Positions 959 through 43,623 of a stretch of DNA of 64,000 nucleotides are shown piece by piece (position 1 is the stretch's first letter; the number at the start of each line of letters is the position of its first letter). Source of the DNA: a virus. The notes beneath the pieces are model-generated. The model was not told the DNA's origin, made no database searches, and worked only from the letters and a program-made list of their open reading frames with translations. Both the position numbers and the translations under genes were made by a program. The DNA is taken from the IMG/VR virus record IMGVR_UViG_3300021142_000004; one strand, 5' to 3'.

Positions 959-959
959 A

Positions 960-1778
960 TTAATCTTGATAATTTAATAAAACAAAACTTTCGTTTCTTA
1001 ATTTCTTTATAGACTTATCTCTAAGTTGTCTAACCCTTTCCTTAGTACAACCAAATTCTTCACCCAAATCATCCAAATTCGATTCATACCCACATAACCC
1101 ATAATATTTCTCAATTATTACCTTTTCTCTATCATCCAAAACAGATAATAACATATTAACCCTCTTTTTTATTTCTTCTGGTGAATTAAATAAATCATCA
1201 GGACTTTTAATGTCATTATTTGGTATCAAATCAATTATCTGATCTCCATCCTCATTTATTGGGTCAAATAATCCAACACAATAAGGTAAATCAATTGAAC
1301 CTGATTCCTCTGTTGGGTTAATCTTTGTATCGTCACCTCTTTCTTCTTGTCTTTTCTTCTTTTGTGAATCTTGAATCACATTTGTTGGGAGTCTTATTGT
1401 TCTTGAATGGTCATTCAATGCGGCAATAATTGATTGTCTAACCCACCAAACTGCATATGATATAAATTTTAAACCACTTGTAGGGTCAAATTTCTCCGCT
1501 GCCTTAATTAGTCCTATATTACCTTCAGATATTAAATCCAAAATTTCAAGACCTTGACTTTGATATGATTTTGCAACTGATATAACAAAACGTAAACAAC
1601 CAGTCACCAATTCATTCTGTAACTTTTCTTTACGTTCTTTACTAATGTTAGTTGTTCTTAATTCTTTAAAGATTTCTTCTTCTCTTTCTAATGTTAAGAG
1701 TGGATACTGACGAATATCTTTCATGTATTGTTTTACTTCGTCTGTGTGATTTAAAATCAAGCTTATGCTACGTGTCAT
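960..1778 (-). CDS. Phage-encoded RNA polymerase sigma70-family factor (RpoD/RpoS-like)
   Basis: Region 1.2 YMKDIRQYPLLT, region 2 LRFVISVAKSY...DLISEGNIGLIKAAEKFDP...KFISYAVWWVRQSI, region 4 HTH LGEEFGCTKERVRQL. Confidence 0.93.
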   Translation of the reverse strand: MTRSISLILNHTDEVKQYMKDIRQYPLLTLEREEEIFKELRTTNISKERKEKLQNELVTGCLRFVISVAKSYQSQGLEILDLISEGNIGLIKAAEKFDPTSGLKFISYAVWWVRQSIIAALNDHSRTIRLPTNVIQDSQKKKRQEERGDDTKINPTEESGSIDLPYCVGLFDPINEDGDQIIDLIPNNDIKSPDDLFNSPEEIKKRVNMLLSVLDDREKVIIEKYYGLCGYESNLDDLGEEFGCTKERVRQLRDKSIKKLRNESFVLLNYQD

Positions 1779-1797
1779 ATAAAATAGTTATTTAATA

Positions 1798-1828
1798 CAA
1801 ATATAGTAAAAAAATCCAATAAAACAAA
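1798..1828 (-). promoter_or_regulatory. Bacteroidota-type housekeeping promoter (TTTG-N19-TATATTTG) upstream of the sigma gene
   Basis: Minus-strand TATATTTG at 1798-1805 with TTTG at 1825-1828, a 19-nt spacer; this fits the Bacteroides -33/-7 consensus. Confidence 0.65.
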
Positions 1829-1841
1829 TCTATTTTATTGG
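1808..1841 (-). terminator. Intrinsic terminator after the putative lysis gene pair
   Basis: CCAATAAAA...TTTTATTGG inverted repeat followed by a T-run on the minus strand. Confidence 0.5.
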
Positions 1842-1865
1842 TATGTGTAGTGATAAAAGAATGGT

Positions 1866-2315
1866 TTAGTGTCTAATAATTAAAATTAATGTAAGTATTA
1901 AAATGATTCCACCTGAAAAAATTGATGTAAATTTATTTTTTGTTTGTTGTACACCCAAATTGAATTCGAGATTTTTAACTCTATTTTCTGATAAATTATT
2001 TTCAATTTTTTCTTGATTAATTATGGAATCATAATTAACTTCTTTAATTTTCATTTTATTTATAATACTATCTTTTAAAGATAATTCATTATAAACCTCC
2101 ATTAATTCTTCATTGGTTTTTTCAAGATTTTCTTTACAAGAATCAAATCTTAATAAATCTTGGGTTATTTTTTTAACTATTGGAATAGGAAAAAATTTAT
2201 AATGTGTGGTATCTTTTTTAGTGTTGTGGGATGTATCCGTAACGGATTGTGAAAAAACTGTCGAGTTGATCGTCAGTATAATTATTAACATCATTAATCT
2301 TTTCATGATAAACAT
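1866..2315 (-). CDS. Secreted/membrane coiled-coil protein, spanin-like candidate
   Basis: N-terminal signal peptide, coiled coil and C-terminal TM helix; overlaps the upstream TM/coiled-coil gene. Confidence 0.45.
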   Translation of the reverse strand: MFIMKRLMMLIIILTINSTVFSQSVTDTSHNTKKDTTHYKFFPIPIVKKITQDLLRFDSCKENLEKTNEELMEVYNELSLKDSIINKMKIKEVNYDSIINQEKIENNLSENRVKNLEFNLGVQQTKNKFTSIFSGGIILILTLILIIRH

Positions 2316-2589
2316 TATTTATTGTTGTTTTTTCAATTTTTATTTTATTTATGTTTGAATCAATTTTATTAATTTCAACATTATAATGCGTAATATTACT
2401 ATCTAATTTTTTCTGTTTAACTTCAATCCTATTAATAGACTCATTTATTGAGTCTATTTTTTGATAAAATTCTGGATCTCTATTTTTTCCACTTATATAA
2501 TTAAAAATAAAATAGGAGATAATACAGATTATTATTAGTGAAAATATAAATTTATAATATTTTGTAAAAAAATTAAAAATAAGTGACAT
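2218..2589 (-). CDS. Membrane-anchored coiled-coil protein, i-spanin-like candidate
   Basis: Single N-terminal TM helix followed by heptad repeats; preceded by the TATTTAT motif and a start-codon hairpin. Confidence 0.45.
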   Translation of the reverse strand: MSLIFNFFTKYYKFIFSLIIICIISYFIFNYISGKNRDPEFYQKIDSINESINRIEVKQKKLDSNITHYNVEINKIDSNINKIKIEKTTINNVYHEKINDVNNYTDDQLDSFFTIRYGYIPQH

Positions 2590-2620
2590 AATATTGTTTT
2601 AAAATAAATATGTCACTTAT
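2579..2620 (-). promoter_or_regulatory. Start-codon-sequestering hairpin with embedded TATTTAT motif
   Basis: Perfect 12-bp inverted repeat ATAAGTGACATA/TATGTCACTTAT covering the ATG at 2589; TATTTAT lies at 2604-2610. Confidence 0.7.
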
Positions 2621-2626
2621 CTAAAA

Positions 2627-3301
2627 TTATCTTTTCTTGGTTATAATTTCATCAATTATACCATATTCAAGAGCGTCTTGTGATGATAACCATAGGTCTC
2701 TTGATGTATCACTCTTAACTTGTTCTGCAGTCTTACCACAATACGAACCAAGTAATTCAAATAGGGAATCATTTAATTTCTCCCACTCAATCATATCAAT
2801 TTTTGCGTCTTGGATATTACCTCTAAAACCACCACTTGATTGGTGTAACATTGTTCTTGAAAATCTCAAAGAACTTCTTTTTCCTTTAGTACCAGCACCC
2901 AATAGAATTGAACCCATAGATGCTGCCATACCTGTGTTAATCGTTCTAATGTCAGAGATAATGTAATCCATAACATCTACCATCGAAAGACCTGATTTCA
3001 CAGATCCACCGGGACTATCAATGTGCATGGTAATATCGTTTGTATCGACACTATCAAGGAACATCAATTGTGCTTGTGTTATTACCGACATATTGTCATT
3101 AACTTCACCAGCAACCCATATAATTCTTTCCATCATCAAACGAGAAAACACATCAAGTTGTGCAATGTTCAATTGACGTTCCTCAATTACATAAGGAGTA
3201 AGACTATTCTCAACTTGTTTGTTGTAATAGTGTAAATTCAAGGAACTAATTCCTTTGTCTTTGGCAAATAAACCAAAATTCTTGTAATCCGTTGGACTCA
3301 T
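2627..3301 (-). CDS. clpP: ATP-dependent Clp protease proteolytic subunit
   Basis: DVFSRLMMERII, IDSPGGSV, catalytic Ser in MAASMG, His in MLHQ, Asp in SRDLW, and EYGIID. Confidence 0.95.
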   Translation of the reverse strand: MSPTDYKNFGLFAKDKGISSLNLHYYNKQVENSLTPYVIEERQLNIAQLDVFSRLMMERIIWVAGEVNDNMSVITQAQLMFLDSVDTNDITMHIDSPGGSVKSGLSMVDVMDYIISDIRTINTGMAASMGSILLGAGTKGKRSSLRFSRTMLHQSSGGFRGNIQDAKIDMIEWEKLNDSLFELLGSYCGKTAEQVKSDTSRDLWLSSQDALEYGIIDEIITKKR

Positions 3302-3323
3302 AATTATTTATTTTTTTGTGTTG

Positions 3324-3331
3324 CAAATATA
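3324..3331 (-). promoter_or_regulatory. TAnnTTTG -7 promoter element upstream of clpP
   Basis: TATATTTG on the minus strand, about 22 nt before the ATG. Confidence 0.55.
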
Positions 3332-3347
3332 TGGTAAACTTTTTAAA

Positions 3348-5600
3348 CTACGAAATATTTTTTGTGATGAAATCTATTGAAGATATATTTTCTTCTTTTT
3401 TAATCATGATTAAATTATCTGACCAGTTTCTTATCAATGTATTATGAGAAATTACAAATATGTGTTCAAAGTAGGTTCTAATCTTCTTAAAGAACTCACC
3501 AACCATTTCTATATTCTCATCAGCAACTTTACCAAATACTTCATCCATTACAACAATGTTTGGTTTAGGTAATGAAGATATTTTAGTTAATACACTTCTT
3601 AATGCCAATGATGATATTGTCTTTTCATAACCTGAACCTGAATTCAATGGCTTAACTACTCTTGACTCATTATCAATCATTAAGAACTCAACCTCATTCT
3701 TTTCATTAATATTTAATTCCAACATGAAATGACAACTATCAGTCAACAATCTAGATAATTCTTGATTTAATAATGGTATCATATTTTTAAGAATAATCTT
3801 AGATATACCATTCTTACCATAAATTGTTAAGTAGGTTTTAAATACTTGTATCAATTCCTCTTCTGATTTAATCTTTTTAACCAAATCATCATTAACCTTT
3901 ATCTTTTCACCCATATTGGTGATTTGATTTTTGTGTTTTTCGATGAAACCATTAGTTTGTCTGATATCACCATTGGTAGTTTCAATCAATGTTTTTAAAG
4001 TAACAACTTCATTATCAATTTTTTGATTCTCTTCTAATTTTTTCTTGTTACTTTCAAAGTTATCAAGTTTAACTTGTTTCTTGTCAATGTCCAATTGTTT
4101 TTGTTCTGCCTCCAATTCATGACGAGTTCTACGAAGTTTATTCTTCTCATACTCATCATATTCTTTCTTCAGTAAATTCAATTTTTCATCTTCTTCTACC
4201 CTAAACTTCAATGATGTTTCTACTTCACTAATATGTCCTTCACAATCTTTTATTTCGTATTTTAAATCATTGATTTCATCTGTATGATCCACTTCTTCTA
4301 ATGAACGTTTACAAGTTGGACAAACACTTCCTTCCTCTAATTCTTTAATCAATTTAAGTTTTTGATCAATATCATTACGAGTTACTTTAAGGTCAAAATT
4401 AAAGTCAGAAATAGTACTTTTAATACCTTCATGTTTATCTTCATAATAATATTCAGAAGGTTCAAGAACAGAAATTTCATTGGCACTATCTAATGTTAAT
4501 TGTTTTTGTCTTTTTAAATCATTAATTTCTTTTAAAAGAACTTCCGGATTAACTTTTATTAGTTCTTGGTCAATGTTATTATTCCTTAAACGTAATGCGG
4601 TTTCTCTTTTTTCTTCAAGATCTCTTAACCTAACATTAAAATCACCCAATTTTTCAGTTAATTTAATGATTTCACTTTCAGATTCAATTATAGTATTTCT
4701 ACAAAGAGTATTATCATTTTCTAATTGTAATAAGTTATAAGTGTTAGATACCAATTTCTTAGACCATTCATTATAAATTTCTTTACAATTATCTTCCTTT
4801 GCTTTAAGTGCTTCCAAACCTAAAAACTTAGTTAAAATCTGTCCTCTTGCAGTAGGTTTAGATTCAATCAATTCTTCCAAATTATAACCAGTCGTAAGAA
4901 TGGTTGAAAGGAAGTCTTCTTGTGTTCCTATTGCAGATTCAATAAACTCTTCTGTTTCTCTTCTTTGTTCACCACTTAAATTAGTTATAGTCCCATCTGT
5001 ATTTTTCTTATAGAACTCCAATTTATTTGTAACAGTATAATCACCCGACCTACTTTTCTTCCTTGTTAAGATCCTTTCAATGAAATAATCCTCATTATCA
5101 ATTGTTATTTCCCCTTTAACTGATAACTCATTTTCATCAGAAAACCTATTGAATATTTCAATATTGGTTTTAGTTTTGGTTGTTGTATTAAAGAATAAGA
5201 ACATCAATAAGTCTACGGACATCGTAGAATTATGCGATAATATCCCATTTGAATAATATTGTTTTACCTCATCTACCTCAATATCTAATAAATCTTTATA
5301 AACACCCGTTGTCATAACAGATTTAATAACATCATTCCCATTTTCTGTTTTTATAATTTGTCCAGGAATTAATTCTTTAACTGGTAAGAATCTACCATTT
5401 TTTAATTTTATTCTATGGTTTTTAGAACAATTTAAAAATAACCCATCGGAAGTTTCAATTCTATGAACCTCTGAGTTTTTTTCTGTAATTTGACAATCCA
5501 TTATTTTTTTAAATCCATATGGTGTTTTTACTTTTAAATTTAAATCACCATATTTTTCAAATATTGTCTTAATATCACCTATTTTTATTTTTTTATTCAT
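3348..5600 (-). CDS. sbcC: SbcC/Rad50 (gp46-like) ATPase C-terminal fragment, fused to a split-intein C-part (aa 1-124)
   Basis: Intein blocks CSKNHR (B), LLDIEVDE (F) and NGILSHN|S (G, +1 Ser), followed by coiled coils, zinc hook CPTC, signature SGYE, Walker B VVMDE and H-loop ISH. Confidence 0.92.
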   Translation of the reverse strand: MNKKIKIGDIKTIFEKYGDLNLKVKTPYGFKKIMDCQITEKNSEVHRIETSDGLFLNCSKNHRIKLKNGRFLPVKELIPGQIIKTENGNDVIKSVMTTGVYKDLLDIEVDEVKQYYSNGILSHNSTMSVDLLMFLFFNTTTKTKTNIEIFNRFSDENELSVKGEITIDNEDYFIERILTRKKSRSGDYTVTNKLEFYKKNTDGTITNLSGEQRRETEEFIESAIGTQEDFLSTILTTGYNLEELIESKPTARGQILTKFLGLEALKAKEDNCKEIYNEWSKKLVSNTYNLLQLENDNTLCRNTIIESESEIIKLTEKLGDFNVRLRDLEEKRETALRLRNNNIDQELIKVNPEVLLKEINDLKRQKQLTLDSANEISVLEPSEYYYEDKHEGIKSTISDFNFDLKVTRNDIDQKLKLIKELEEGSVCPTCKRSLEEVDHTDEINDLKYEIKDCEGHISEVETSLKFRVEEDEKLNLLKKEYDEYEKNKLRRTRHELEAEQKQLDIDKKQVKLDNFESNKKKLEENQKIDNEVVTLKTLIETTNGDIRQTNGFIEKHKNQITNMGEKIKVNDDLVKKIKSEEELIQVFKTYLTIYGKNGISKIILKNMIPLLNQELSRLLTDSCHFMLELNINEKNEVEFLMIDNESRVVKPLNSGSGYEKTISSLALRSVLTKISSLPKPNIVVMDEVFGKVADENIEMVGEFFKKIRTYFEHIFVISHNTLIRNWSDNLIMIKKEENISSIDFITKNIS
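5229..5600 (-). mobile_element. Split intein C-part (124 aa) of SbcC
   Basis: MNKKIKI...VKTPYG...CSKNHRI...YSNGILSHN, followed by Ser. Confidence 0.88.
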
Positions 5601-5664
5601 ATATATTTTAACTTTTATTTATAAAAATATAATATTAGTGGAAAAACTACTGTTAGAAAAAAAA

Positions 5665-6216
5665 TTATTTTAATTCATCAGGTAAAAACCCTAATATTTT
5701 AATTATTTCATTTTCATCATATTCAATATCTATTAAAGTTTCTTCATCAACACATTTTCCACCAAAGTTTTTTGGGTTAGATTCCACAGCGGTAATACCT
5801 TCAAGTTCTGTAAAATCAATAACATTATTACCACCAAATGATAAGAAATTTGAAAATTCAATTCTCTTTATGTACCATTTGTTATAACGAACTTTATTTT
5901 CATTTAACAAATCAATTGCACCATTAACTTTATTATCTAACCTATCAATCATATCCCATTTAATGTTGATTTTATTTTCTTCAATAAAATCTTTCATTAA
6001 TTTCTTTTGGAACTGATGATCGGTGATACTATCAGAAACTTCCAATGATTTTAGTTTAGTATCATCAGTATTGATGATGTGTTTTGGAACGATTTGTACG
6101 TTTCTTGATCCATACTTATGTTGGAAGTATGTTTTTATTCTTTTAACCTTTTCTTCAGTAAAATTCTCAGGTACATCTTCCCATGTAACCTTAATAACCG
6201 GTGATTTATATTTCAT
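5665..6216 (-). CDS. sbcC: SbcC/Rad50 N-terminal fragment ending in a 29-aa split-intein N-part
   Basis: IKRIEFSNFLSFG...IDF...GITAVESNPKNFGGK (Walker A up to Lys), then intein block A CVDEETLI and a stop. Confidence 0.9.
   Translation of the reverse strand: MKYKSPVIKVTWEDVPENFTEEKVKRIKTYFQHKYGSRNVQIVPKHIINTDDTKLKSLEVSDSITDHQFQKKLMKDFIEENKINIKWDMIDRLDNKVNGAIDLLNENKVRYNKWYIKRIEFSNFLSFGGNNVIDFTELEGITAVESNPKNFGGKCVDEETLIDIEYDENEIIKILGFLPDELK
5668..5754 (-). mobile_element. Atypically short split intein N-part (29 aa)
   Basis: CVDEETLIDIEYDENEIIKILGFLPDELK* directly after the Walker A GGK. Confidence 0.85.
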
Positions 6217-32809: not shown

Positions 32810-34165
32810 TGACATCCTATCATTGTCTAAAAAACAATAAAATTACCAATTGAGGAATGGTTATTACAAACATTAAAGTTCATAATTACATTAGTATAAT
32901 CTAATGGCTCTGTCATAGAAGCAAGGTGATTGTCATAATATCTTTTCAAAATATTAATAGCCGAATTTAAATCTCTATCTATTTCGACTTTATCACTTAA
33001 TTTAACAATTCTATCTTTTAATTCTACCTTATTCTTAAATATTTTTCCTGTTAAAGAATTAAGTTGTGTTGTATTTCTTTCATTTATCTTAATTAAATCA
33101 CATTGTTTATTTTGTAATTTATATTTAAGAAATTCTAAGAACATATTAATATTAGATTCATTAAATGATTTTCTAATACTTTTTTTATTCTTATTAATAC
33201 CTTCTATTGACATTAAAGATTTAATTGTTAATTCACCTACTACAATTGTTTTGTAGTTCATATTCACTAATTGTTTACTCTGAATATGTAGAGTTTCTTT
33301 TATTTGAGTATTTTTTTTAGAATATAATTTTTTCTTAACCTTATTTAGTTTATTGTAATTTTTACTTCCTTTTTCTTTTTTACTTAATTTAGATTTAATT
33401 TCATTAATTTGTTTACCAAAATACTGATTAATCTTTTTAGCTTTATTCTTTAAGATAAATACATTACCTTTATTATCCACACCAGTTCCTAAATTTTTTA
33501 ATCCCAAATCAAACGCCAATACCTTAGTATTAATTATAACATTATCATTATATGATATTGTGTCGTTAATCACAATATCACATAACCATTTATTATTATT
33601 ATTATTAAATTTAACACAAATTTGTTTAATATTTAATTCTGATACATTAGTTAGGTTAGATTTATAGTTAAATAATATTTTATTTATTTGTATTTTATTA
33701 TCTTTAAATACCCAACCTGATTGGTTAAAAACTAAGGTATGATATCTTCCTAATTCTTTTTGTTTAGGCGGTTTTGCTGTATTATCTTTTTTAATTAGGG
33801 TAAAGAATGATTGATATGATTGGGAGACTTCGGTTGCAATTGTTTGTATTGCCTTTGCGTTAAGTAATTTCCATTCTGGTTTTGTTACATTTTTTAATTT
33901 TGGAAGAAGATTAATTAATTCGAATTTTGAATATATTTTTTTATTTATTTCGTAATATTTTTGTTGAATATCAATAAGAGTATTCCATACATCCATTCTA
34001 ATATTCGACAACTGGTTAAGTTGTAATATTTGTTCTTGAGTTGGAAATAATCTAATTGAGTATGTTTTCATATTTTATATAAATAACTTATTACTTATTT
34101 ACATAAATATAAATTAAATTGTGAAAAAATTGGTTCTGTGGGAAATTTGACTATATTTTCTGAAT
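32810..34165 (-). mobile_element. Putative non-autonomous IS200/IS605-family element (ends approximate)
   Basis: tnpB followed by ...GATAGGATGTCA (32810-32821), which resembles family right ends; an imperfect 13-bp hairpin lies at 34074-34107. Confidence 0.55.
32827..34071 (-). CDS. tnpB: TnpB-family RNA-guided endonuclease (IS200/IS605; solo, IS1341-like)
   Basis: KTYSIRLFPT HTH start, RuvC-I AFDLGLK, RuvC-II VVGEL and RuvC-III DRDLNSAINI; no adjacent tnpA. Confidence 0.92.
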   Translation of the reverse strand: MKTYSIRLFPTQEQILQLNQLSNIRMDVWNTLIDIQQKYYEINKKIYSKFELINLLPKLKNVTKPEWKLLNAKAIQTIATEVSQSYQSFFTLIKKDNTAKPPKQKELGRYHTLVFNQSGWVFKDNKIQINKILFNYKSNLTNVSELNIKQICVKFNNNNNKWLCDIVINDTISYNDNVIINTKVLAFDLGLKNLGTGVDNKGNVFILKNKAKKINQYFGKQINEIKSKLSKKEKGSKNYNKLNKVKKKLYSKKNTQIKETLHIQSKQLVNMNYKTIVVGELTIKSLMSIEGINKNKKSIRKSFNESNINMFLEFLKYKLQNKQCDLIKINERNTTQLNSLTGKIFKNKVELKDRIVKLSDKVEIDRDLNSAINILKRYYDNHLASMTEPLDYTNVIMNFNVCNNHSSIGNFIVF

Positions 34166-34174
34166 CTAATAAAT

Positions 34175-34209
34175 AAAAAATCCCAATACTTTTAATATTG
34201 GGATTTTTT
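34175..34209. terminator. Bidirectional intrinsic terminator after nrdA
   Basis: AAAAAATCCCAATA-N7-TATTGGGATTTTTT perfect stem with A/T runs on both sides. Confidence 0.85.
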
Positions 34210-34917
34210 TTATGAACTACAACCTACACATTCAAATATAGAATCTGTTGGTTTAGTTGTTTCAACATAATCTACTTTAGGTTTATCGGTCTTAGTTTGT
34301 TGAATTTTTGTTGTATCTAACGCCAAGTGTTTTGCTCCCGTTGATATCGCCTTTGTTCTAACATAATAACATAATGTTTTAAGACCCCTCTCCCATGAAT
34401 AAAAATGTGAAGATGAAATTTTTGATAATGTTGGGTTTGACATATATATGTTCATTGACTGAGACTGATCAATAAATGGTCCTCTATCTGCTGACATATT
34501 AATCAATTCTTTCTGTGAAATTTCCCAAATTGTTTTATATTTTAAAATCAAATGTTCAATTCTTTGAATTTTTTTAGTATAATTCTTTTCTTCTTTATCC
34601 AAATAATTATTAAAATTAATATTTTGAATAGAACCATCATTCATAATAATCTCATTCTTTAATTCTTCAGACCAAATACCAAGTTTTTCAAAATCATTAA
34701 TCAAATATTTGTTAACAATCAATATCTCACCACCAACTACTCTTCTGTTAAATAATGCAGAGTGTGCAGGTTCTGTCATCTCAAATGAACCTGTGATTTT
34801 AGCAGAACTATTGTGACTAACACAACCATTTTCAGTTATGTAATGGTGATCATTTTCAACTTCAATATCCCATACGGGTTCTTTTAGAATTGATTTAGTA
34901 ATTTTTTTTATTTTCAT
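34210..34917 (-). CDS. nrdA: Class Ia ribonucleotide reductase alpha, fragment 3, with a 36-aa IntC (34810-34917)
   Basis: VWDIEVENDHHYITENGCVSHN|SSAKITG; IDQSQSMN, GLKTLCYY and C-terminal CVGC. Confidence 0.93.
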   Translation of the reverse strand: MKIKKITKSILKEPVWDIEVENDHHYITENGCVSHNSSAKITGSFEMTEPAHSALFNRRVVGGEILIVNKYLINDFEKLGIWSEELKNEIIMNDGSIQNINFNNYLDKEEKNYTKKIQRIEHLILKYKTIWEISQKELINMSADRGPFIDQSQSMNIYMSNPTLSKISSSHFYSWERGLKTLCYYVRTKAISTGAKHLALDTTKIQQTKTDKPKVDYVETTKPTDSIFECVGCSS

Positions 34918-36379
34918 AATTTATACCTTTTTTATTTAAAAAATTTTTTAATTTTTCTTCATTAAAATAAAACCCATCTTCTTCCCATAATATTAAAACT
35001 TCAAAACCATTATTTATTGCAATATTAATTTTTTCTTTATCTTTATTTATTACTTTAATTGGGTCAACAATTTTATTTTTGAATTTTTTTATTGATTCGT
35101 TAATCTCATGTTTCTCCCAATTAGGATGCCAATAACTACCATTATATTCTATAATTATTTTTTTGTTTTTTAAGGTAAAATCATAGAAATAAATGTTTTT
35201 TTTATCTTTAATAAAATATTCTTTATTATTTTCCACACCTAAATAAACATCGTCATAATTATTTTCAATTAAAAAATCATATAATGGTTTAAAATGTCTT
35301 AAACTACTTTTACTTGCCTTTAAGATTTTAACAAATAATTTTTCTTTAGTCTCTTGATATTTTTTAAAACCTTTTTCGTAATCGTTTTCTTTTTTAATAA
35401 AATAACCTAAAGATTTATTATCCGATAATTTACATTTTTCTTTATACAATAATTCACCATTTTCGTCATACTTTTTTTTAAAAAAATCCAAACTATTAGA
35501 ATCTTTTTTTTGATTTTTAATTTTATACTCTTTTAAACTTTTTTCTAAATCGTCATATTTTTTTAAAAAATAATTTAAACTTGAATTGTCTTTTTTAAGA
35601 TTATTTTCGATATATTTTTCAATGTATATATTGTCACCATATTTTTTTTTGAAAAAATTTAAATTAATTGTTGTTTTTTTATTTTTTTCATCAAATATTT
35701 GTTTTGATTTTTCAACATCTCCATTTGATTTTTTCAACGCCCAAGAAAGGGATGATGAATCTTTTTTAATGTAATTTTCCCATTTTTCTAACCATTCACT
35801 TCCATATCTTATTTTAAAATTTTCTATAGTGTTTTTACTTTTATTAACATAATCGTCATATTTCTGAATACCTTCTTTTTCGCCGTATTTTTTTATAAAA
35901 TTAATTTTAGTAGTTGATTTTTTAGTTTTATAAGAAAATATTTTTTCCAAAGCTTCTTCTTCAGTAAATCCTAGATTAATATAATAATTTTTATCATAGT
36001 ATTTTGAAAATTGTTTTTGATTATTTTTAAATTTTTCATTGCCAATTTCATCTCCATACATTAAACATAAAAATGTTTTACTGTTAGAATCATTTAAATT
36101 CATCATTTTATAATTTAAAAATTTAACCATTCTATCAATATCGATATTTGTTTTATTATTTTCAATGTATTTTATAACACTTCTAATTTGTTTTTTGTTT
36201 TTAATAAAAATATCAATTATTTCAAATGGTTTAATTTTTTCATCGCTAATTTCTAATATTTTAAATAAAAAACTTTCATCTCCATTAATTTTTATAACGT
36301 TTTCATCTAAATTTAACATAAAAAAAATAATACTGTTTTTAGTTTTAATTTTGGTATTGTTGAAAAATAACATATTCAT
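34895..36379 (-). CDS. Free-standing Vsr-like (EDxHD/DUF559-type) homing endonuclease with KYG helical repeats
   Basis: C-terminal YFYDF...IIIEYNGSYWH...D..K...GFEVLILWE and repeated KKYG-x-E units; lies between nrdA fragments 2 and 3. Confidence 0.8.
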   Translation of the reverse strand: MNMLFFNNTKIKTKNSIIFFMLNLDENVIKINGDESFLFKILEISDEKIKPFEIIDIFIKNKKQIRSVIKYIENNKTNIDIDRMVKFLNYKMMNLNDSNSKTFLCLMYGDEIGNEKFKNNQKQFSKYYDKNYYINLGFTEEEALEKIFSYKTKKSTTKINFIKKYGEKEGIQKYDDYVNKSKNTIENFKIRYGSEWLEKWENYIKKDSSSLSWALKKSNGDVEKSKQIFDEKNKKTTINLNFFKKKYGDNIYIEKYIENNLKKDNSSLNYFLKKYDDLEKSLKEYKIKNQKKDSNSLDFFKKKYDENGELLYKEKCKLSDNKSLGYFIKKENDYEKGFKKYQETKEKLFVKILKASKSSLRHFKPLYDFLIENNYDDVYLGVENNKEYFIKDKKNIYFYDFTLKNKKIIIEYNGSYWHPNWEKHEINESIKKFKNKIVDPIKVINKDKEKINIAINNGFEVLILWEEDGFYFNEEKLKNFLNKKGINYENKKNY

Positions 36380-36409
36380 ATTAATTGTTTTTTATAAATA
36401 TGTTATTTT
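36364..36409 (-). promoter_or_regulatory. Start-codon-sequestering hairpin with TATTTAT in its 5' arm
   Basis: AAAATAACATATTTAT pairs with ATGAATATGTTATTTT (16 bp, one G-U). Confidence 0.75.
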
Positions 36410-36438
36410 ATTTTTTTTTAACACGTAAATGACAGATA

Positions 36439-37419
36439 TTATTCGTTTATATTAATTATGTCATCATTTTCATTTAAATCTTTAACTTTAACCCATATGT
36501 TTTCATTATTTCTATTAATTAAAAATTTATGTTCCGGACTACATTTAAAAATAGTACCGTCTTCCATTTCTATATTAATAATTTCAGAGTAACCGTTGTA
36601 ATAAATTTTATCCGATATTGAATATCCATTTAAGGTTTTTATTAAAATTGGAGTTTTAAAATTATACCAAACACCACCATTTTCATTTTTTTCAATGTTA
36701 TCAACATCTATATCATTTAATTCACAAATCTCTTTAAAACTTAAAACACCCTTTTCAGTTATTACCTTTGTATCAGATGTTTGACAAGCTACTGGCATTT
36801 GTGCCGTAACTAAACTATTACAAACACCATATGTTTTAACATCTTCTTTTAATGTGTTCCAATCCCATAAACCTGATAGTTCAACATTATCCCACATATC
36901 AAATTGGAAAATACCTTTTGACATTGGTGAACCATCAAAACCTTCATAATTCAAATATTTACCAGTTTTACAAAGATCATTACTTTCAGTAATTGCCGCA
37001 AAATATATTGTTTCAAATATTTGTTTATTTAATTTTTTTGCCTCCTCTGATGTGAAAATATAATCTAACAAATAAAATACATCTGCTAATCCTTGAGTAC
37101 CAATTGCAATTGCTCTTTGTTCTAATCCACCCTTTCTACCTTTTTGAGTAGAATAACTATTGATATCAATTACTTTATTAAGTGCATTAACTACTTTCCT
37201 TACTTCTTTATACAATAGTTGGAAATCAAATTTACCATCAACAATAAAGTTCTTTAAAACAATAGAAGATAATGTACAGATTGCAGTTGTTTCAGAATCA
37301 GTATATTGATAAATCTCACAATTATGTACCAATATATCATTACCATAAAAACATTCCGTTTCTGGTACTTGTATATCATATACGTCTTCTTTTTTAATTA
37401 ATTTATTTATTTTTATCAT
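36439..37419 (-). CDS. nrdA: NrdA fragment 2: IntC1 (33 aa), 178-aa extein, IntN2 (115 aa)
   Basis: VYDIQVP...NDILVHN|CEIYQY...AICTLSSI...AQMPVA|CQTSDTKV...KCSPEHKF...KDLNENDDI*. Confidence 0.93.
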   Translation of the reverse strand: MIKINKLIKKEDVYDIQVPETECFYGNDILVHNCEIYQYTDSETTAICTLSSIVLKNFIVDGKFDFQLLYKEVRKVVNALNKVIDINSYSTQKGRKGGLEQRAIAIGTQGLADVFYLLDYIFTSEEAKKLNKQIFETIYFAAITESNDLCKTGKYLNYEGFDGSPMSKGIFQFDMWDNVELSGLWDWNTLKEDVKTYGVCNSLVTAQMPVACQTSDTKVITEKGVLSFKEICELNDIDVDNIEKNENGGVWYNFKTPILIKTLNGYSISDKIYYNGYSEIINIEMEDGTIFKCSPEHKFLINRNNENIWVKVKDLNENDDIININE

Positions 37420-38575
37420 TTTTTAAATATTCAAATTTATATTTTTTATAAGTGTTTCTTTTACCTTTACATACAGACACTATTGCTGAAATATTACCAT
37501 TTTCAATACTTTTAGATGCCTCTGTCGCGCTTTGAAATACTGTTCTGTTACCATTGGAATCTATTTTAACAACAGATTTTTTTACCCCTTTAGGTATTTC
37601 AATTTTATATTCGCTATTTTCATATCTAAAAATGTTATCATAACTAGTGTTTTTTTTACATTTCCTACGAATAAACTCAACACAAAATCCATGTTCTTTG
37701 GACGCTTCGGAGGTGTTTTTATACTCAACTTCAACAGTGTCGTTTATGTTTTTTTTAAAAAAAACTTTTTTGTTAATTTTTTCTTTTATTTTAGGTTTAA
37801 TATAGTCATTTCTAAAAGATTTTAAAATAACTAAATCTTTATTTTCAAATTTCCAATGGTAATTTTTATGTGTTCCCCCATTTTTTAAACATGAATAAAG
37901 TCTAGACGGTGTTAATTTATATTTTTCAATTGCTGAGATTGTTGTTAATCTATCTAAAATTTCTTTTGTATTAATATCTATCATTTCAACAATTGGTAAT
38001 TTTTCTTTTCTAGTTTTAATTATTTTTCGTTTAGTCTCATCGCTCATTATTTTACCTTTATTCCAATGATTATTGTTTATTTTACGTAAATGGCTAAAAT
38101 TTTCTTCAATTGGCCTTTTAAAATTTGGATTTTTTTCTCCTGACCAATTTTTTGACAAAATTTTATTTATTTTATCTTTCTTATCGGGAATAAATTTTAA
38201 AATATCACCTCCTGTTCCACCATCAGTTATATTTGTTAAAATACCTCCATCAATACTTTTACCGTAAAATTTTATTAATTCACGTTCAATATTCAAAACT
38301 AAATTTTCATCTTCACTTTCGTAAACAATTATATAATTTGGTTCATAATTGTTTTCTTTTAATAATTTTACAGTTCTGCATTTATTGGGATTAACATCCC
38401 CATCGCATGATATCGGATTTTTAACATAATGGAACAAATGTCTTTTTATTTTATTTTTAGTTTCATGTAATCCCTTTCCAACATAAAACGGTTTGAAAGT
38501 GATTCCAGAATAATATGGATTATCATAATTACCTGGAAATCTATCATCCAATAAAACATACACATAATAATTCAT
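37403..38575 (-). CDS. Free-standing GIY-YIG-like homing endonuclease with NUMOD3/NUMOD1 repeats
   Basis: YYVYVLLD...PFYVGKG...R...E..LI..YG......LTNITDGG; WNKGKIMSDETKRKI; NUMOD1 tails; lies between nrdA fragments 1 and 2. Confidence 0.85.
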   Translation of the reverse strand: MNYYVYVLLDDRFPGNYDNPYYSGITFKPFYVGKGLHETKNKIKRHLFHYVKNPISCDGDVNPNKCRTVKLLKENNYEPNYIIVYESEDENLVLNIERELIKFYGKSIDGGILTNITDGGTGGDILKFIPDKKDKINKILSKNWSGEKNPNFKRPIEENFSHLRKINNNHWNKGKIMSDETKRKIIKTRKEKLPIVEMIDINTKEILDRLTTISAIEKYKLTPSRLYSCLKNGGTHKNYHWKFENKDLVILKSFRNDYIKPKIKEKINKKVFFKKNINDTVEVEYKNTSEASKEHGFCVEFIRRKCKKNTSYDNIFRYENSEYKIEIPKGVKKSVVKIDSNGNRTVFQSATEASKSIENGNISAIVSVCKGKRNTYKKYKFEYLKNDKNK

Positions 38576-38617
38576 AAAAATTGTTCATATATAAATATAT
38601 CAATAATGAGTAAACGA

Positions 38618-40201
38618 CTATTTGTACACATCTAAAACATCCGTTTCAACTAATTCATCCGCTCTAATATAACCACGATTCTTAGTGAAAATCAAATGAT
38701 CTGGGGTACATTTTATACTTTTTCCAGTTTCTTCATCAATTATTTCTAAAATTTCAGAATTTTTTTTAGTTAATTTTCCGGTTAATATATCAACAAATTT
38801 ACCGTTTTCACTTTTTACTTTTAATTTTTCCGAAGTTTCAATTAAATCAATTACGTTTTTAATTGTTAAATTTTCAACATCACCATTTTCTCTTTGGATG
38901 TTTAATTGGACATCTCCAGTTAAACAACAGAGATTTGATTGTTTGATAACACCATAGTTTTGATGATTTGTTTTCTTATTAGCATTATCTTTAGAACATA
39001 AATAAGGTACACCAGTTTCAACCTGAGACTCAATTATTTTATTCCATATATCTTGTGCCTTAACTTTCCTACCAATACCTAATTCTACCGCCTTATTATA
39101 ATTCTCCAAATATTCATCACCATATGAATCTTGTAATGGTTTAATACCATTTTTAATGATGTCATTTGGACAGAATAAATACCAATCAGAGTCAGATTTA
39201 ACAGCCTCCATGAAGTTGTCAGGTATCCATAATGCAGTAAACAAATCCCTTGCCCTTAACTCTTCCGCACCTGTGTTCTTTTTAATCTCCAAAAGATCCA
39301 TTATATCTTTATGCCAAGGTTCAAGATATATTGCAGCACTACCAGGTCTTCTACCTTGTTGGTTAAAGAATCTTAATGATTCATTTATAATTTTAAGGTA
39401 TTTTAAAAGACCACCAGCATAACCACCTGATGATGAAATTCTACTTTCTTTACTTCTGATATTTGACATACATAAACCAATACCAGCAGCATCAGATGAA
39501 TATGTTGAGATATCATTCATTGTACCCAAAAGACCTTCTCTTGAATCTGCTTCATTATATTTCAACACACAAGATGCAAGTTGAGGAACTTTAGTACCAG
39601 CATTGATCATAATTGGTGTTGCAGGAGATATTAATTGTGTTGATAATGATTTGTAATATTCAACAGCATCTTCAAAAGATTTTGTTACCCACAAAGCCAC
39701 TCTCATATACATATGTTGTGGTCTTTCAGATAATTTACCCTTTGAGTTCTTTAACAAATACATTTCAGCCAATGATCTCCATGCAAAATAATCAAAATTA
39801 TAATCATTTTCATGATTAATAATATAATCTATTTTATCCGCACCATACTTTTCAATTGTGTTTATTAACTCAATATTTATAACACCCTCATCATATAGAG
39901 TTTTCATTGTCTCAGAAAAACTTGGGTTTGTTTTTTTATGATAAGAAGATATTGCAATTATGGCGGCCAATCTCGAATAATCGTGATGGCTACCAGTGTA
40001 TGATGCTGCAATTTCATATACCAATTTATCTATTTCTCTTGTTTTTATCTGACCTTCGGTTGGTACAGATGTGATAACTTTTATGAAAATCTCATCTGAA
40101 TTAACATTTAATCCTTTAGATGCTTTCTTTATTCTGTTGTAAATTTTTTGTGGGTTGAATGACTCATCACTCCCACTTCTTTTCTTAATTCTTAGTGACA
40201 T
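38618..40201 (-). CDS. nrdA: NrdA fragment 1 (ATP cone to catalytic Cys) with a 102-aa IntN1 (38621-38926)
   Basis: IKKRSG ATP cone, PATP, QLASC, QQGRRPG, ETGVPY, QSNLC|CLTGD...KCTPDHLIFTKNRGY...DEL*. Confidence 0.95.
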   Translation of the reverse strand: MSLRIKKRSGSDESFNPQKIYNRIKKASKGLNVNSDEIFIKVITSVPTEGQIKTREIDKLVYEIAASYTGSHHDYSRLAAIIAISSYHKKTNPSFSETMKTLYDEGVINIELINTIEKYGADKIDYIINHENDYNFDYFAWRSLAEMYLLKNSKGKLSERPQHMYMRVALWVTKSFEDAVEYYKSLSTQLISPATPIMINAGTKVPQLASCVLKYNEADSREGLLGTMNDISTYSSDAAGIGLCMSNIRSKESRISSSGGYAGGLLKYLKIINESLRFFNQQGRRPGSAAIYLEPWHKDIMDLLEIKKNTGAEELRARDLFTALWIPDNFMEAVKSDSDWYLFCPNDIIKNGIKPLQDSYGDEYLENYNKAVELGIGRKVKAQDIWNKIIESQVETGVPYLCSKDNANKKTNHQNYGVIKQSNLCCLTGDVQLNIQRENGDVENLTIKNVIDLIETSEKLKVKSENGKFVDILTGKLTKKNSEILEIIDEETGKSIKCTPDHLIFTKNRGYIRADELVETDVLDVYK

Positions 40202-40213
40202 AAATTATAAATA

Positions 40214-41164
40214 TTAAAAATCATCAGTAAATGTTAAACTTTCTCCCAATTTTGCTTTTTGGTATTCTACCGTTCTTGATTCAAAGAAATTACCCTTTGT
40301 TTCAATTGCAATTTGTTCCATAAATTTAAATGGTTGTTCAACGTTAAATTCTTTCTTACAACCCATTTTTACCAATAAACCATCAACAACAAACTCCAAA
40401 TATTGTTTCATTAAATTATCATTCATACCTATCAAAGATACTGGTAATGATTCTGTAATGAACTCTTTTTCTATCTCTAAAGCAGATAATAAAATCTGTC
40501 TAATTCTTTCTTCACTTGGTTTATTTTCAAGGTGATTATTTAAAATATTAATTGCAAAATCACAATGTAAATTTTCATCCTTAAAAATCAAAGTATTTGC
40601 ATTACATAAACCTTGCATAATACCTCTTGATTTTAACCAAAAGATAGAACAAAAAGATCCAGAGAAGAATATACCCTCAACTGCAGCAAACGCTACCAAT
40701 CTTTCTTGAAAAGATGCACTTTCAATCCAATCTAATGCCCACTTTGCTTTCTTCTGAACTGCGGGTAATCTATCAATTGCATGAAAACATTCGTCTTTCT
40801 CTTTTTCATTGGTGATATAAGTATCAATCAACAATGAATACATCAAGGAATGTATATTTTCCATAGCAATTTGAAAACCATAGAAAAACTTAGCTTCTGT
40901 ATATTGTACTTCTTTATAGAAGTTTTCTGCCAAGTTTTCATTTACAATTCCATCAGATGCTGCAAAGAATGATAAAACATTTTTAATAAAAAACTTTTCA
41001 TTATCTGTTAATTTACCCCAATCTTTGATATCACCACTCAAATCAATTTCTTCCGCTGTCCAAAATGCAGATTGGTGACTCTTATAAAATTCCCATAAAT
41101 CATTATGTTCAATGGGAAACAATACAAACCTGTCCGGATTTTCCGTTAAAATTCTTTCTTTCAT
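40214..41164 (-). CDS. nrdB: Class Ia ribonucleotide reductase beta subunit
   Basis: [20 protein letters not shown] (radical Tyr), [15 protein letters not shown] and NFFE. Confidence 0.96.
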
Positions 41165-41178
41165 TTTATTTTTTTATT

Positions 41179-43623
41179 TTATTGATTATTGGCCATTTGG
41201 TTTCTCCTTTGATACGCCTCTCTAGCCCTATTAATATTGTTCTTTGTCTTTTCTTCTTCGTGACCTAATAACGTATTTTGCATCTCTGTGTCGATATCCA
41301 AATATTCATTATTAAATTTACAATTTTGAAACACAACACCATCTTTACCAATACGAGATTTAAGTAATGTTAAAGTTGCTAAGTTATGTTCTTTTTGTTC
41401 CAAAGTTTTACCGATAGATAAAATAACGTGACCAATTTGTGCTTTCTTAATAGAACCACCCATTTGATCTGCGGTAACCACTTCAGATGATATTGAATCA
41501 CGATTACCTTGTGTTGCCGTCCATATTGCCATTTCAAACTCACTGGTCATTGACTCCAATTGTCTCATAATTGACCCTTCTCCCTTCCATTCTTCCCCGT
41601 TATTTGACCTTTCAGGTGAAATACAGTCAACGTAGTCAATCAACAATAAATCGACCTTAAATCCGTCTGAATACATCTTTCTGATTTTAGATTTAATCTC
41701 AGAAATAGTAACACCATCAGATTGTAATTTCAATAATTTAATTGAACCTTTTGTGTTATCTTGTATTTCCTTAAGACGAAACAAAACTTCTTCTTTGTTA
41801 TCACTTTGTTCATCAGGTGCGATACCTGACCAAATTGTATAGTGTTTTCTTTTAATATTACCTCGATTATCTTCAAAAAATACTTGAAGTACATTATAAC
41901 CTAAATTATAAGCAGTGTTTGCAAATTTAGTTAATAATGTTGTGTTATGTGTTAATACATAATCCCTAGTAACAAATAATTCATCTGTATTTGATACTTT
42001 TATACATACCGCTTCTTCGTTATGTGAAAAATTAATTGATTTAATAAATTTTTGTGAAATATATTTTTTTCTTTTTCTAAATCTTTCTATTTTTCTTATT
42101 AATCTAAATGGTACAATATTATTTGAAAAAGATATTGTTACAACATATGCCATTTGATCTAACTTTTTAAAACCTTTATATTTAAAAGTTGGTTGTTTTA
42201 AAGTTATATTACATGTTCCACCTAATGATAAAACTAATTCTCTAATATTTAACGATAAATCTTTTGAAATTGTTATTATTTGTGTACAACCTTTTTTATC
42301 CACATAACCATCAGTGTCCATTAAACCTTGTAAAATTGATAATCTAACTTCAAATGAATTATATAAATAATCATTTGGGATAAATTTATTATTAGATTCT
42401 GTCCCCAATAAATTATATTTTTCTAAATCTTTTTTAATTGTGTAATTTAATAAAATTTTCTTTATTGTTTTTATACCAGTTAATGTTTCTCTTTCATATT
42501 CATTAAATGATGTATGAATATTCAAATGTTTAATATTATCGAATATTTCATCATCTTTAGTTGAAATTTGTATTGTATCACAACCTAAACAACCATCACC
42601 CAAGAGTAAACCTAATAAATATGGATCAATAAATACTTCTTTTTCATTAAAGTTAATTGGTTCAACAATAGGTAAACGATAATTATATCTACCTCGTTTT
42701 TTTATATCCAACATCATTTCAGATGTTTTCATAACTTTATAATTGTTATTTGGTTTATATAAAGATTTACCATTTTTTCTTATTTTTGTTGTTCTCATAT
42801 TAAGAGTATTAACTGACCATAAATGTTCTTGATCACAGTTAACAAAAGTATTATCAGTAAATTCAACTCTATATATTGGTCTATTACCTTGTGGAAAAAC
42901 CCCTATTGTAAATTGTTCATTACCATCAGAACCTATAATTTTATCACCACATTTAATATCCCCAATTTTCATCCAACCATTTGGAGTCAATATTGGTTCA
43001 CTTATAGGTAATGCTTTACCAGTACCAGTTGGTGCTAATACAACACCCAATTCACCTAATCCTAAACCACCTTTTAAAAGATTATCAATACCTACAATAC
43101 CTGTTGGTATTGGATGTCTAAAATCTTTCTCTAAAGCACCTTCAATATCGTGAAATACATCTGTTGCGTCATCATTAATAATACCAACTTGTAACGCCTT
43201 TTGAATGATTTGTTCAATTTTTGCATAATTTTCAAAATCACCATTTTCAATAATACTTTGTACGTTTTTAAGTTCTCTCTTTAAATTTTGTTGTTTACAA
43301 AAATTAAGTGCGGTATCTTTAACATATTCTGTTTCAACACTATTTTTAATTATTTCTAGTGTGTCAATGTGAATTCTAGCAGATTCTTTATTACCGTTTT
43401 CTGCCATTATCTTTTGAGCTAACGTATTATAATCAGGAATTTTATTATATGATCTATATAATTCTTTCAAGTTCTCCATAATAAACTTAAAAGCATTATT
43501 ATCAAAGAAACGTGATTCTATTACATCAATGATGTTCTCACCATACTTTTTATCCTCAATAATCGCTTTGATTAATGATTGTTGAAACGTAGCACCCAAA
43601 TACCCAAAATTCCTTTCTTCCAT
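41179..43623 (-). CDS. dnaB: Replicative DnaB/gp41-like helicase containing a 357-aa intein
   Basis: PTGIVGID, Walker A APTGTGK|T, LLIDYVD, TATQGNR and KSRIG. Confidence 0.92.
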   Translation of the reverse strand: MEERNFGYLGATFQQSLIKAIIEDKKYGENIIDVIESRFFDNNAFKFIMENLKELYRSYNKIPDYNTLAQKIMAENGNKESARIHIDTLEIIKNSVETEYVKDTALNFCKQQNLKRELKNVQSIIENGDFENYAKIEQIIQKALQVGIINDDATDVFHDIEGALEKDFRHPIPTGIVGIDNLLKGGLGLGELGVVLAPTGTGKALPISEPILTPNGWMKIGDIKCGDKIIGSDGNEQFTIGVFPQGNRPIYRVEFTDNTFVNCDQEHLWSVNTLNMRTTKIRKNGKSLYKPNNNYKVMKTSEMMLDIKKRGRYNYRLPIVEPINFNEKEVFIDPYLLGLLLGDGCLGCDTIQISTKDDEIFDNIKHLNIHTSFNEYERETLTGIKTIKKILLNYTIKKDLEKYNLLGTESNNKFIPNDYLYNSFEVRLSILQGLMDTDGYVDKKGCTQIITISKDLSLNIRELVLSLGGTCNITLKQPTFKYKGFKKLDQMAYVVTISFSNNIVPFRLIRKIERFRKRKKYISQKFIKSINFSHNEEAVCIKVSNTDELFVTRDYVLTHNTTLLTKFANTAYNLGYNVLQVFFEDNRGNIKRKHYTIWSGIAPDEQSDNKEEVLFRLKEIQDNTKGSIKLLKLQSDGVTISEIKSKIRKMYSDGFKVDLLLIDYVDCISPERSNNGEEWKGEGSIMRQLESMTSEFEMAIWTATQGNRDSISSEVVTADQMGGSIKKAQIGHVILSIGKTLEQKEHNLATLTLLKSRIGKDGVVFQNCKFNNEYLDIDTEMQNTLLGHEEEKTKNNINRAREAYQRRNQMANNQ
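41944..43014 (-). mobile_element. Class-3 (Ala1, WCT-triplet) intein with LAGLIDADG endonuclease
   Basis: Starts ALPISEPILTPNG; EHLW (Trp B12), AVCIKV (Cys F4), VLTHN (Thr G5); YLLGLLLGDG and LQGLMDTDG motifs; +1 residue is Thr. Confidence 0.9.

Follow-up and report, generated by a model that had tools for sequence, protein, structure and literature searches.

In the virus record IMGVR_UViG_3300021142_000004 of IMG/VR, the class I ribonucleotide reductase (RNR) gene nrdA is not a single gene. In the window – the whole stretch of 64,000 nucleotides that was analysed – nrdA is three separate minus-strand open reading frames (ORFs), F1, F2 and F3, with two different split inteins, each as a matching pair of halves, at their ends. 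The gene order on the minus strand between 34210–41164 is nrdB, F1, HEG1, F2, HEG2, F3, where HEG1 and HEG2 are free-standing homing-endonuclease genes (Table 1). The N-terminal and C-terminal halves of the inteins are designated IntN1 and IntC1 for intein 1, and IntN2 and IntC2 for intein 2. The 3' end of HEG1 and the start of F2 have 17 nt in common, and the 3' end of HEG2 and the start of F3 have 23 nt in common. There are no frameshifts and no internal stops in the nrdA pieces. A first-pass annotation of this DNA had described the three ORFs with lengths of 425 + 102, 33 + 178 + 115 and 36 + 199 aa, with 802 aa for the joined product, and all of its coordinates hold, including the overlaps. 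Judged by its sequence, this NrdA is very probably stitched together from three pieces.

Table 1. Features of the fractured nrdA locus in the window, in 5'-to-3' order on the minus strand.
Feature	Position	Strand	Description
nrdB (RNR small subunit)	40214–41164	-	Pfam PF00268 E 1.7e-105; adjoins F1 on upstream side
F1	38618–40201	-	527 aa: extein 1–425 (ends SNLC) and IntN1 426–527 (starts CLTGD)
F1 extein 1 (aa 1–425)	38927–40201	-	ATP cone, all-alpha domain, first part of barrel; PF03477, PF00317, PF02867 positions 1–213
IntN1 (F1 aa 426–527, 102 aa) and stop	38618–38926	-	Cys1; block B CTPDH; matches NrdJ-1 intein 8ubs_A, E 9e-13
Non-coding gap preceding HEG1, 42 nt	38576–38617	-	No stable hairpin; includes ATATTTATA
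HEG1, free-standing GIY-YIG-type gene with NUMOD-like DNA-binding modules	37403–38575	-	390 aa
F2	36439–37419	-	326 aa: IntC1 1–33, extein 34–211 (CEIY...MPVA), IntN2 212–326 (starts CQTSD)
IntC1 (F2 aa 1–33)	37321–37419	-	Ends LVHN, then Cys+1; TIGR01443 27.6 bits (cut-off 15.6)
F2 extein 2 (aa 34–211, 178 aa)	36787–37320	-	Middle of barrel; PF02867 positions 213–390
IntN2 (F2 aa 212–326, 115 aa) and stop	36439–36786	-	Cys1; block B SPEH; TIGR01445 31.9 bits (cut-off 24.5); Pfam Intein_splicing E 1.7e-13
Non-coding gap preceding HEG2, 59 nt	36380–36438	-	No stable hairpin
HEG2, free-standing, putative C-terminal Vsr/DUF559-like nuclease domain, N-terminal repeats	34895–36379	-	494 aa
F3	34210–34917	-	235 aa: IntC2 1–36 (ends SHN) and extein 37–235 (starts SSAK)
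IntC2 (F3 aa 1–36)	34810–34917	-	Ends GCVSHN, then Ser+1; TIGR01443 30.7 bits (cut-off 15.6)
F3 extein 3 (aa 37–235, 199 aa) and stop	34210–34809	-	End of barrel, YY pair, C-terminal CxxC; PF02867 positions 391–523
Terminator-like hairpin directly 3' of F3 stop	34175–34209	-	16-pair stem, then T run; sole such site in 33800–41400

Joining the exteins gives an 802-aa protein with the junctions SNLC-CEIY and MPVA-SSAK. The RNR profiles and human RRM1 (3hnc_A) are covered by the three exteins in order, with neither gaps nor overlaps. Positions in PF02867 are given in Table 1; in TIGR02506, F1, F2 and F3 cover positions 2–295, 295–477 and 477–616. Residues 5–426 of F1 map to 3–430 of RRM1, residues 34–212 of F2 to 430–606, and residues 36–218 of F3 to 605–766. 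This mapping confirms that the catalytic residues are spread over all three ORFs, as had been proposed. F1 holds the first redox Cys (C211, in LASCVL), N423, and the thiyl-radical Cys, C425, which is the last residue of its extein. F2 holds Cys+1 (residue 34), E35, and the second redox Cys (C48), while F3 holds the YY pair (within residues 184–186) and the C-terminal CxxC (C230 and C233) – in the alignment of relatives, the YY pair, C230 and C233 are invariant. All features of class I NrdA/R1 are present: the ATP cone, the all-alpha domain, the barrel, the catalytic residues, and an adjacent NrdB.

Five intein-free relatives in IMG/VR encode NrdA in a single ORF. The joined exteins align with these end to end (ca. 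807 columns) with 77–82% identity, and neither junction has an alignment gap. At junction 2, the intein-free relatives also read MPVA-SSAKITGSFE. Junction 1 is SNLC-CEIYQYTD in the window, compared to SNLC-NEIYQYTD or SNLC-AEIFQYSD in the intein-free relatives, and the sole junction difference is the residue at +1, with Cys in place of Asn or Ala. A Cys at +1 is the nucleophile that splicing requires and the enzyme does not, which makes this substitution the strongest single piece of evidence for selection on splicing chemistry and not on mere docking.

The intein halves have the motifs of class 1 inteins. In intein 1 these are C1, CTPDH, VYDIQV, and LVHN followed by C (+1); in intein 2 they are C1, SPEH, VWDIEV, and VSHN followed by S (+1). 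IntC1 and IntC2 both pass the cut-off of the NCBIfam model for intein C-termini (TIGR01443), and IntN2 passes that for N-termini (TIGR01445). Searches of the PDB with IntN2 gave only weak intein matches, with E values of 0.15 or worse. The anatomy and the matches to intein models are far beyond chance. With F2 as the query, at least 24 protein clusters (formed at 90% clustering) of ca. 328 aa were retrieved that span the whole of F2 with 51–75% identity. Across 24 of these clusters, V-D-I-V of block F, LVHN of block G, Cys1 of IntN2 (C212) and the block B His (H297) are invariant. In six relatives, C1 and CTP[DE]H of IntN1 and GCVSHN of IntC2 are also invariant. The first-pass identification of two different split inteins, at SNLC/C and MPVA/S (a slash marks the insertion point), is thus upheld by the intein models, the match to NrdJ-1 and the relatives. 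A structure model docks IntC2 on IntN2 with a score of 0.88, compared to 0.00 for the best control; its runs share at least 91% of contacts, and the predicted local distance difference test value (pLDDT) of the partner is at least 77. Among solved complexes, 58 of 80 attain the mark used for the docking score, as do 2 of 110 mismatched pairs. The model supports the pairing of IntN2 with IntC2, though the pass may reflect likeness to solved split-intein complexes.

These features make it highly likely that nrdA here is a doubly fractured class I gene, invaded by two split inteins with their endonuclease genes, and that its three pieces are trans-spliced into the 802-aa NrdA. The two inteins, unrelated to each other, would have invaded two conserved active-site positions – site 1 directly after the thiyl-radical Cys (SNLC/C) and site 2 in the MPxA/S loop – with each originally borne by a free-standing homing-endonuclease gene. 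The six genes from nrdB to F3 would be transcribed as a block from one strand, and F1, F2 and F3 translated separately. IntN1 on F1 would then pair with IntC1 on F2, and IntN2 on F2 with IntC2 on F3. In the reassembled HINT domains, splicing would follow the class 1 pathway: an N-S acyl shift at Cys1, trans-thioesterification to Cys+1 or Ser+1, Asn cyclisation, and an S/O-N shift. The end product would be one NrdA, with the two junctions given above, as the partner of NrdB. The endonuclease genes would be selfish passengers that spread the cassettes, and appear not to be needed for splicing, as one or both of them have been lost from relatives. Three-fragment trans-splicing had been proposed in the first-pass annotation, and it is the best reading of the comparative data in view of the invariant residues, the purifying selection, the layout that is kept after endonuclease loss, and the Cys at +1.

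A different possibility is that the fragments assemble non-covalently, with one or both pairs of intein halves acting as affinity handles without splicing. There is a precedent in phage Aeh1, in which the products of nrdA-a/mobE/nrdA-b are active as two unligated chains (PMC3045599, PMC2677866). As in the window, a free-standing endonuclease gene cuts nrdA of Aeh1 and the pieces must meet, but in Aeh1 there is no intein, the assembly is non-covalent, and there is a single break (Crona et al., PMC3045599). Non-covalent assembly is quite unlikely for the window. All of the residues of the splicing chemistry are invariant across the 24 clusters. Every intein-bearing allele has Cys or Ser at +1, whereas the intein-free ones have Asn, Ala, Thr or Glu, and only splicing selects in this way. 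The breaks also lie inside active-site motifs (the thiyl Cys and the MPxAS loop), where ca. 135–150 extra residues would need to be tolerated.

Another possibility is that nrdA is decaying – broken by selfish elements and no longer functional. The intein-ridden nrdA of Campylobacter phages has been read as degenerating by Dwivedi et al. 2013 (PMC3653736), and the phage might use the RNR of its host. Decay is nevertheless very improbable here, as the catalytic residues are all kept, the frames are intact, and the ratio of non-synonymous to synonymous substitution rates (dN/dS) is 0.05–0.24 in the exteins and in a similar range, 0.05–0.39, in the intein halves. Between the window and the related locus L008, the four intein halves have dN/dS of 0.15–0.39, with IntN1 at 0.39 and IntN2 at 0.18. 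Between the related loci L009 and L010, dN/dS is 0.05–0.09 for IntC1, IntN2 and IntC2, while the IntN1 DNA is too alike for an estimate. Selection thus keeps the split inteins even where their endonuclease genes are gone, as would be expected of a host enzyme that depends on them. The layout, furthermore, persists in lineages that are only 51% identical as well as after endonuclease-gene loss.

That the stops are assembly or sequencing errors, or that the gaps are removed from the RNA by group I introns with endonuclease genes, which are common in phage RNR genes (PMC3653736), is close to refuted – the three-piece nrdA, with the same stops and starts, is in all of six assemblies made independently from different samples, as well as in at least 24 protein clusters, no Rfam family matched 33500–41500 at E values up to 1, the ORF ends are recognisable intein halves and not intron-flanking exon sequence, and in relatives without endonuclease genes only 1 nt separates the F1 stop from the F2 ATG, which leaves no room for an intron. 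The stops are therefore very unlikely to be errors of assembly, a possibility that the first-pass annotation had named as one that would undo its reading.

Several points weigh against the proposed reading as a doubly fractured, trans-spliced gene. Junction 1 has the arrangement Cys(-1)-Cys1...Cys+1, whereas NrdJ-1 is reported to need Ser at +1. Of the 32 aligned residues of IntC1 and IntC2, 16 are common to both, and the charge polarity does not differ between the inteins, each having an acidic IntN and a basic start of IntC. The hairpin that Dassa et al. found upstream of endonuclease genes is absent in both of the gaps in the window, which fold no better than shuffled sequence (z = +1.4 and +0.5). 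Co-transcription, finally, would be read only from the gene order and one terminator-like site, that after F3; a count of one is no more than chance (shuffles averaged 1.8), and the site is a consensus match, not evidence of function. The motif ATATTTATA precedes the F1, HEG1 and HEG2 start codons by 4–14 nt (40206–40214, 38590–38598 and 36393–36401, minus strand). It is not enriched in the window, with 14 found and 10 expected, 11 of the 14 on the gene strand. A scan for sigma-70-type promoters found fewer sites than in shuffles.

The likeness of the two IntC halves also bears on whether the inteins can be kept apart. F2 has the form IntC1-extein-IntN2, so that cross-reaction would cyclise it, and pairing of IntN1 with IntC2 would skip it. 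The same IntC-cargo-IntN topology is used by protein engineers for cyclisation; in split-intein circular ligation of peptides and proteins (SICLOPPS), it cyclises the cargo when the halves are compatible. Between IntN1 and IntN2 the identity is 30%, and some differences between the families are invariant: for example, VYDI(Q/T)V stands against WDIEV, and IntC2 is three residues longer ahead of block G. Split inteins that are unrelated tend to be orthogonal – in a set of 24 functional split-intein pairs, 15 are mutually orthogonal (PMC7090010) – and the two inteins of the window are likely to be orthogonal as well. The first-pass annotation had held that they should be strictly so. The logic of the F2 topology behind that claim stands, but strict orthogonality is a logical requirement only, and the sequences, with half of the aligned IntC residues shared and the same charge polarity, would permit cross-reaction. 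It is rather unlikely that the three-piece state goes beyond a tolerated parasitism, so that assembly serves as an RNR checkpoint, with the three Cys of junction 1 as a redox or timing gate, and that selection against cyclisation and skipping of F2 has made the two co-resident inteins strictly orthogonal, with their order of ligation encoded. The suggestion that the locus offers a ready-made ligation kit adds little: its practical value would be modest, given the many orthogonal split inteins now available, including the 15 noted above, and the six-piece assemblies that have been made (PMC7090010).

From sequence comparison, the three-piece layout is widespread in phage metagenomes, and is also found, unannotated, in one cultured Klebsiella phage. 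There is no near-identical DNA in the phage collection searched. The order helicase-nrdB-nrdA-gp25 is kept in the related loci L003–L005 and L008–L010, and only nrdB-nrdA is kept in L006/L007 and the P0010 contig. The contents of the gaps vary. Both gaps are filled in the window and in L006/L007, and both are empty in L003–L005 and L010. Gap 1 is empty and gap 2 filled in L008; the P0010 contig has a 48-aa ORF in gap 1, with gap 2 filled; and in L009 gap 1 is filled, while gap 2 has just a 90-aa ORF.

The two sites are also occupied independently. Ca. 50 IMG/VR loci are intein-free at both sites, four others (P0016, P0058, L012 and L013) are split at site 1 only, and P0059 is intein-free at site 1 and has IntN2 at site 2. 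This separate occurrence indicates that the two inteins act as independent elements. In P0005 (557 aa, from an ENA contig of 2.5 kb, 74% identical), site 1 is split, while intein 2 is a contiguous mini-intein with a short linker between IntN2 and IntC2; this single short contig is a candidate snapshot of the transition between split and contiguous forms. Together, these loci give a natural series – intein-free, split at either or both sites, contiguous at site 2, with or without endonuclease genes – in which the turnover of homing-endonuclease cassettes while the split inteins stay can be tested.

The insertion point is shifted by one residue between lineages at both sites (38926/38927 and 36786/36787 in the window), with no change in spliced length. 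At site 1, some lineages have SNLC/.../CEI or SNLC/.../SEI and others have SNL/.../C(A/S)EI. L004 has Ser at +1, and in L007, L009 and L010 the insertion is one residue earlier, with the thiyl Cys itself at +1. At site 2, some lineages have MPVA/.../SSAK and others PPTAS/.../SARV. All four combinations of the site 1 and site 2 variants occur. At site 1 there are two subfamilies, in which IntN1 and IntC1 vary together. The IntN1 DNA of L009 (4888–5202) is 98–100% identical to that of L010, while the adjacent DNA of the N-extein is ca. 78% identical, and the switch is exactly at the insertion site. IntC1 is diverged between the two, and the GIY-YIG gene is kept only in L009. The IntN1 block looks like a recent transfer or a gene-conversion tract, which would mean ongoing mobility.

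The first-pass assignment of GIY-YIG and Vsr-like homing endonucleases to the gaps agrees with profile matches and with homologues in the relatives. HEG1 has Pfam matches to LEM-3_GIY-YIG (2.2e-4) and to an I-HmuI NUMOD-like domain (7.6e-5) that are below cut-off, and a NUMOD3 match (2.5e-4) that passes. With the gap-1 ORF of L009, HEG1 shares 35% identity (E 2e-30), and that ORF itself matches LEM-3_GIY-YIG at 3.4e-12. Gap 1 of L007 contains an ORF unrelated to HEG1, which indicates that the endonuclease genes turn over. Homologues of HEG2 occupy the same gap in L007 and L008. The evidence that HEG2 is Vsr/DUF559-like is weaker and transitive: residues 399–468 match NCBIfam vsr (TIGR00632) at 5.7e-5, below cut-off, and hhalign gives a 96% probability (E 2.6e-9) of homology to an L009 ORF with a Pfam DUF559 match of 2.1e-8. 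HEG2 also matches PHROG 22677 (2.6e-17), and its motifs FYDF, IIEYNGxxWH and LILWEEDG are invariant in three homologues. Sequence and profile searches of the PDB for its fold gave noise only, and a single-sequence AlphaFold2 model of residues 345–494 had a pLDDT of 38 and was not used. Residues ca. 120–340 of HEG2 (35300–36000, minus strand) contain 4–6 degenerate repeats around KKDSSSLxYFxKKYG-like motifs. These repeats are also found in the L009 DUF559 endonuclease, and are probably a modular DNA-binding array.

Fractured genes of this general kind were described by Dassa et al. 2009 (PMC2677866), who reported the loci NrdA-1 to -7, NrdJ-1/2, gp41 and IMPDH. Each of their loci is fractured in two, and insertion at the thiyl site is common to all of the NrdA loci. 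The window resembles them in that a split intein interrupts the host gene, with a free-standing GIY-YIG or Vsr-like gene on the same strand between the halves, and in that site 1 is at the thiyl-radical motif. The gap before HEG1 is 42 nt, compared to 27–51 nt in their loci, and the second gap is 59 nt; the overlaps of endonuclease and IntC ORFs are 17 and 23 nt, compared to 6–69 bp. Their locus gp41-7, which has no endonuclease gene, parallels the relatives that have lost theirs. Unlike those loci, nrdA in the window is fractured twice, which gives a middle protein of the form IntC-extein-IntN. Site 2 (MPxA/S) is not among their split sites, no hairpin precedes either endonuclease gene, and site 1 is at the point typical of NrdJ, after the Cys, in a class I NrdA.

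Intein 1 is best compared to NrdJ-1 (PDB 8ubs; bioRxiv 10.64898/2026.03.03.709324), a split intein found by experiment to be ultrafast. The insertion point is the same, NPC/.../SEI in NrdJ-1 and NLC/.../CEI in the window, and both are split at the canonical position, into ca. 100 + 35 aa. The host of NrdJ-1 is a class II NrdJ, while that of intein 1 is a class I NrdA with Cys at +1.

The cultured case is Klebsiella phage KP13-7, a jumbo Alcyoneusvirus (OP617745.1 30877–36407), in which both sites are split by inteins homologous to those of the window. The splits are SNLC/CVTGE...VHN/CEIDLP and MPGE/CQSW...VSHN/TSSQIS, with a GIY-YIG gene in gap 1 and another ORF in gap 2. In KP13-7, nrdA is in four ORFs, as a third break, without an intein, holds an HNH gene. 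Unlike the window, its exteins are of the E. coli NrdA type, and there is a 14-bp hairpin (z = -8) just upstream of the GIY-YIG gene. The region is annotated as nrdA_1, nrdA_2 and hypothetical proteins, the middle pieces being among the hypothetical proteins, and a literature search found no paper that describes it. KP13-7 provides a cultured system in which a doubly split nrdA can be studied. In the related phage phiKp_21, only site 2 is split. Apparent matches that span the inteins in 121Q-like coliphages were rejected on the example of phage 121Q, which has a single, ordinary 772-aa nrdA; K64-1 and RaK2 match residues 15–225 of the query only.

The Campylobacter phages CPt10 and vB_CcoM-IBB_35 (NC_027996 and NC_041834) have inteins at the same two sites, and extra ORFs interrupt site 1. 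Site 2, however, has a contiguous mini-intein, so that nrdA is in two translated pieces and not three; this nrdA is the one regarded as possibly degenerating (PMC3653736). Engineered tandem trans-splicing and multi-piece assembly (PMC7090010, PMC12707363) use at least three fragments, different split inteins and an IntC-cargo-IntN middle piece, as in the window, but those systems were designed, while the arrangement here is natural, inherited, and in an essential phage enzyme. When the literature was searched for natural genes that contain two split inteins, only engineered systems came up. The layout is less singular than the first-pass annotation held. The two-piece form is known; the new element is that a natural gene is fractured twice, which implies trans-splicing of three pieces. 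Natural trans-splicing has been described as joining two pieces; an essential enzyme would here need three polypeptides and two split inteins. How co-resident natural inteins avoid cross-reaction, and how quickly and completely an active site is rebuilt from three parts during infection, can both be tested.

The window has a G+C content of ca. 27%, and belongs to an uncultured phage of about 160 kb that probably infects a member of the Bacteroidota. By its baseplate wedge protein, the closest cultured relative is a Flavobacterium myovirus (27% identity), and relatives carry virion proteins with SprB repeats; both of these make a Bacteroidota host likely. In the region 1–6216, where other split inteins had been suggested, Pfam gave Rad50/SbcC motifs and no intein model. 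A solo TnpB-like gene (32827–34071, minus strand) with OrfB_IS605, Cas12f1-like TNB and HTH_OrfB domains lies between F3 and a gp25-like baseplate gene. L003–L005 and L008–L010 have no such gene here. Directly upstream of nrdB, the replicative helicase (gp41/DnaB-like, 814 aa, 41179–43623, minus strand) contains an intein that is contiguous and includes a LAGLIDADG homing-endonuclease domain (Pfam Hom_end 1.7e-8, LAGLIDADG_3 5e-6). The L009 helicase apparently consists of two ORFs separated by a DUF559 gene, and it is the product of this DUF559 gene that HEG2 matches.

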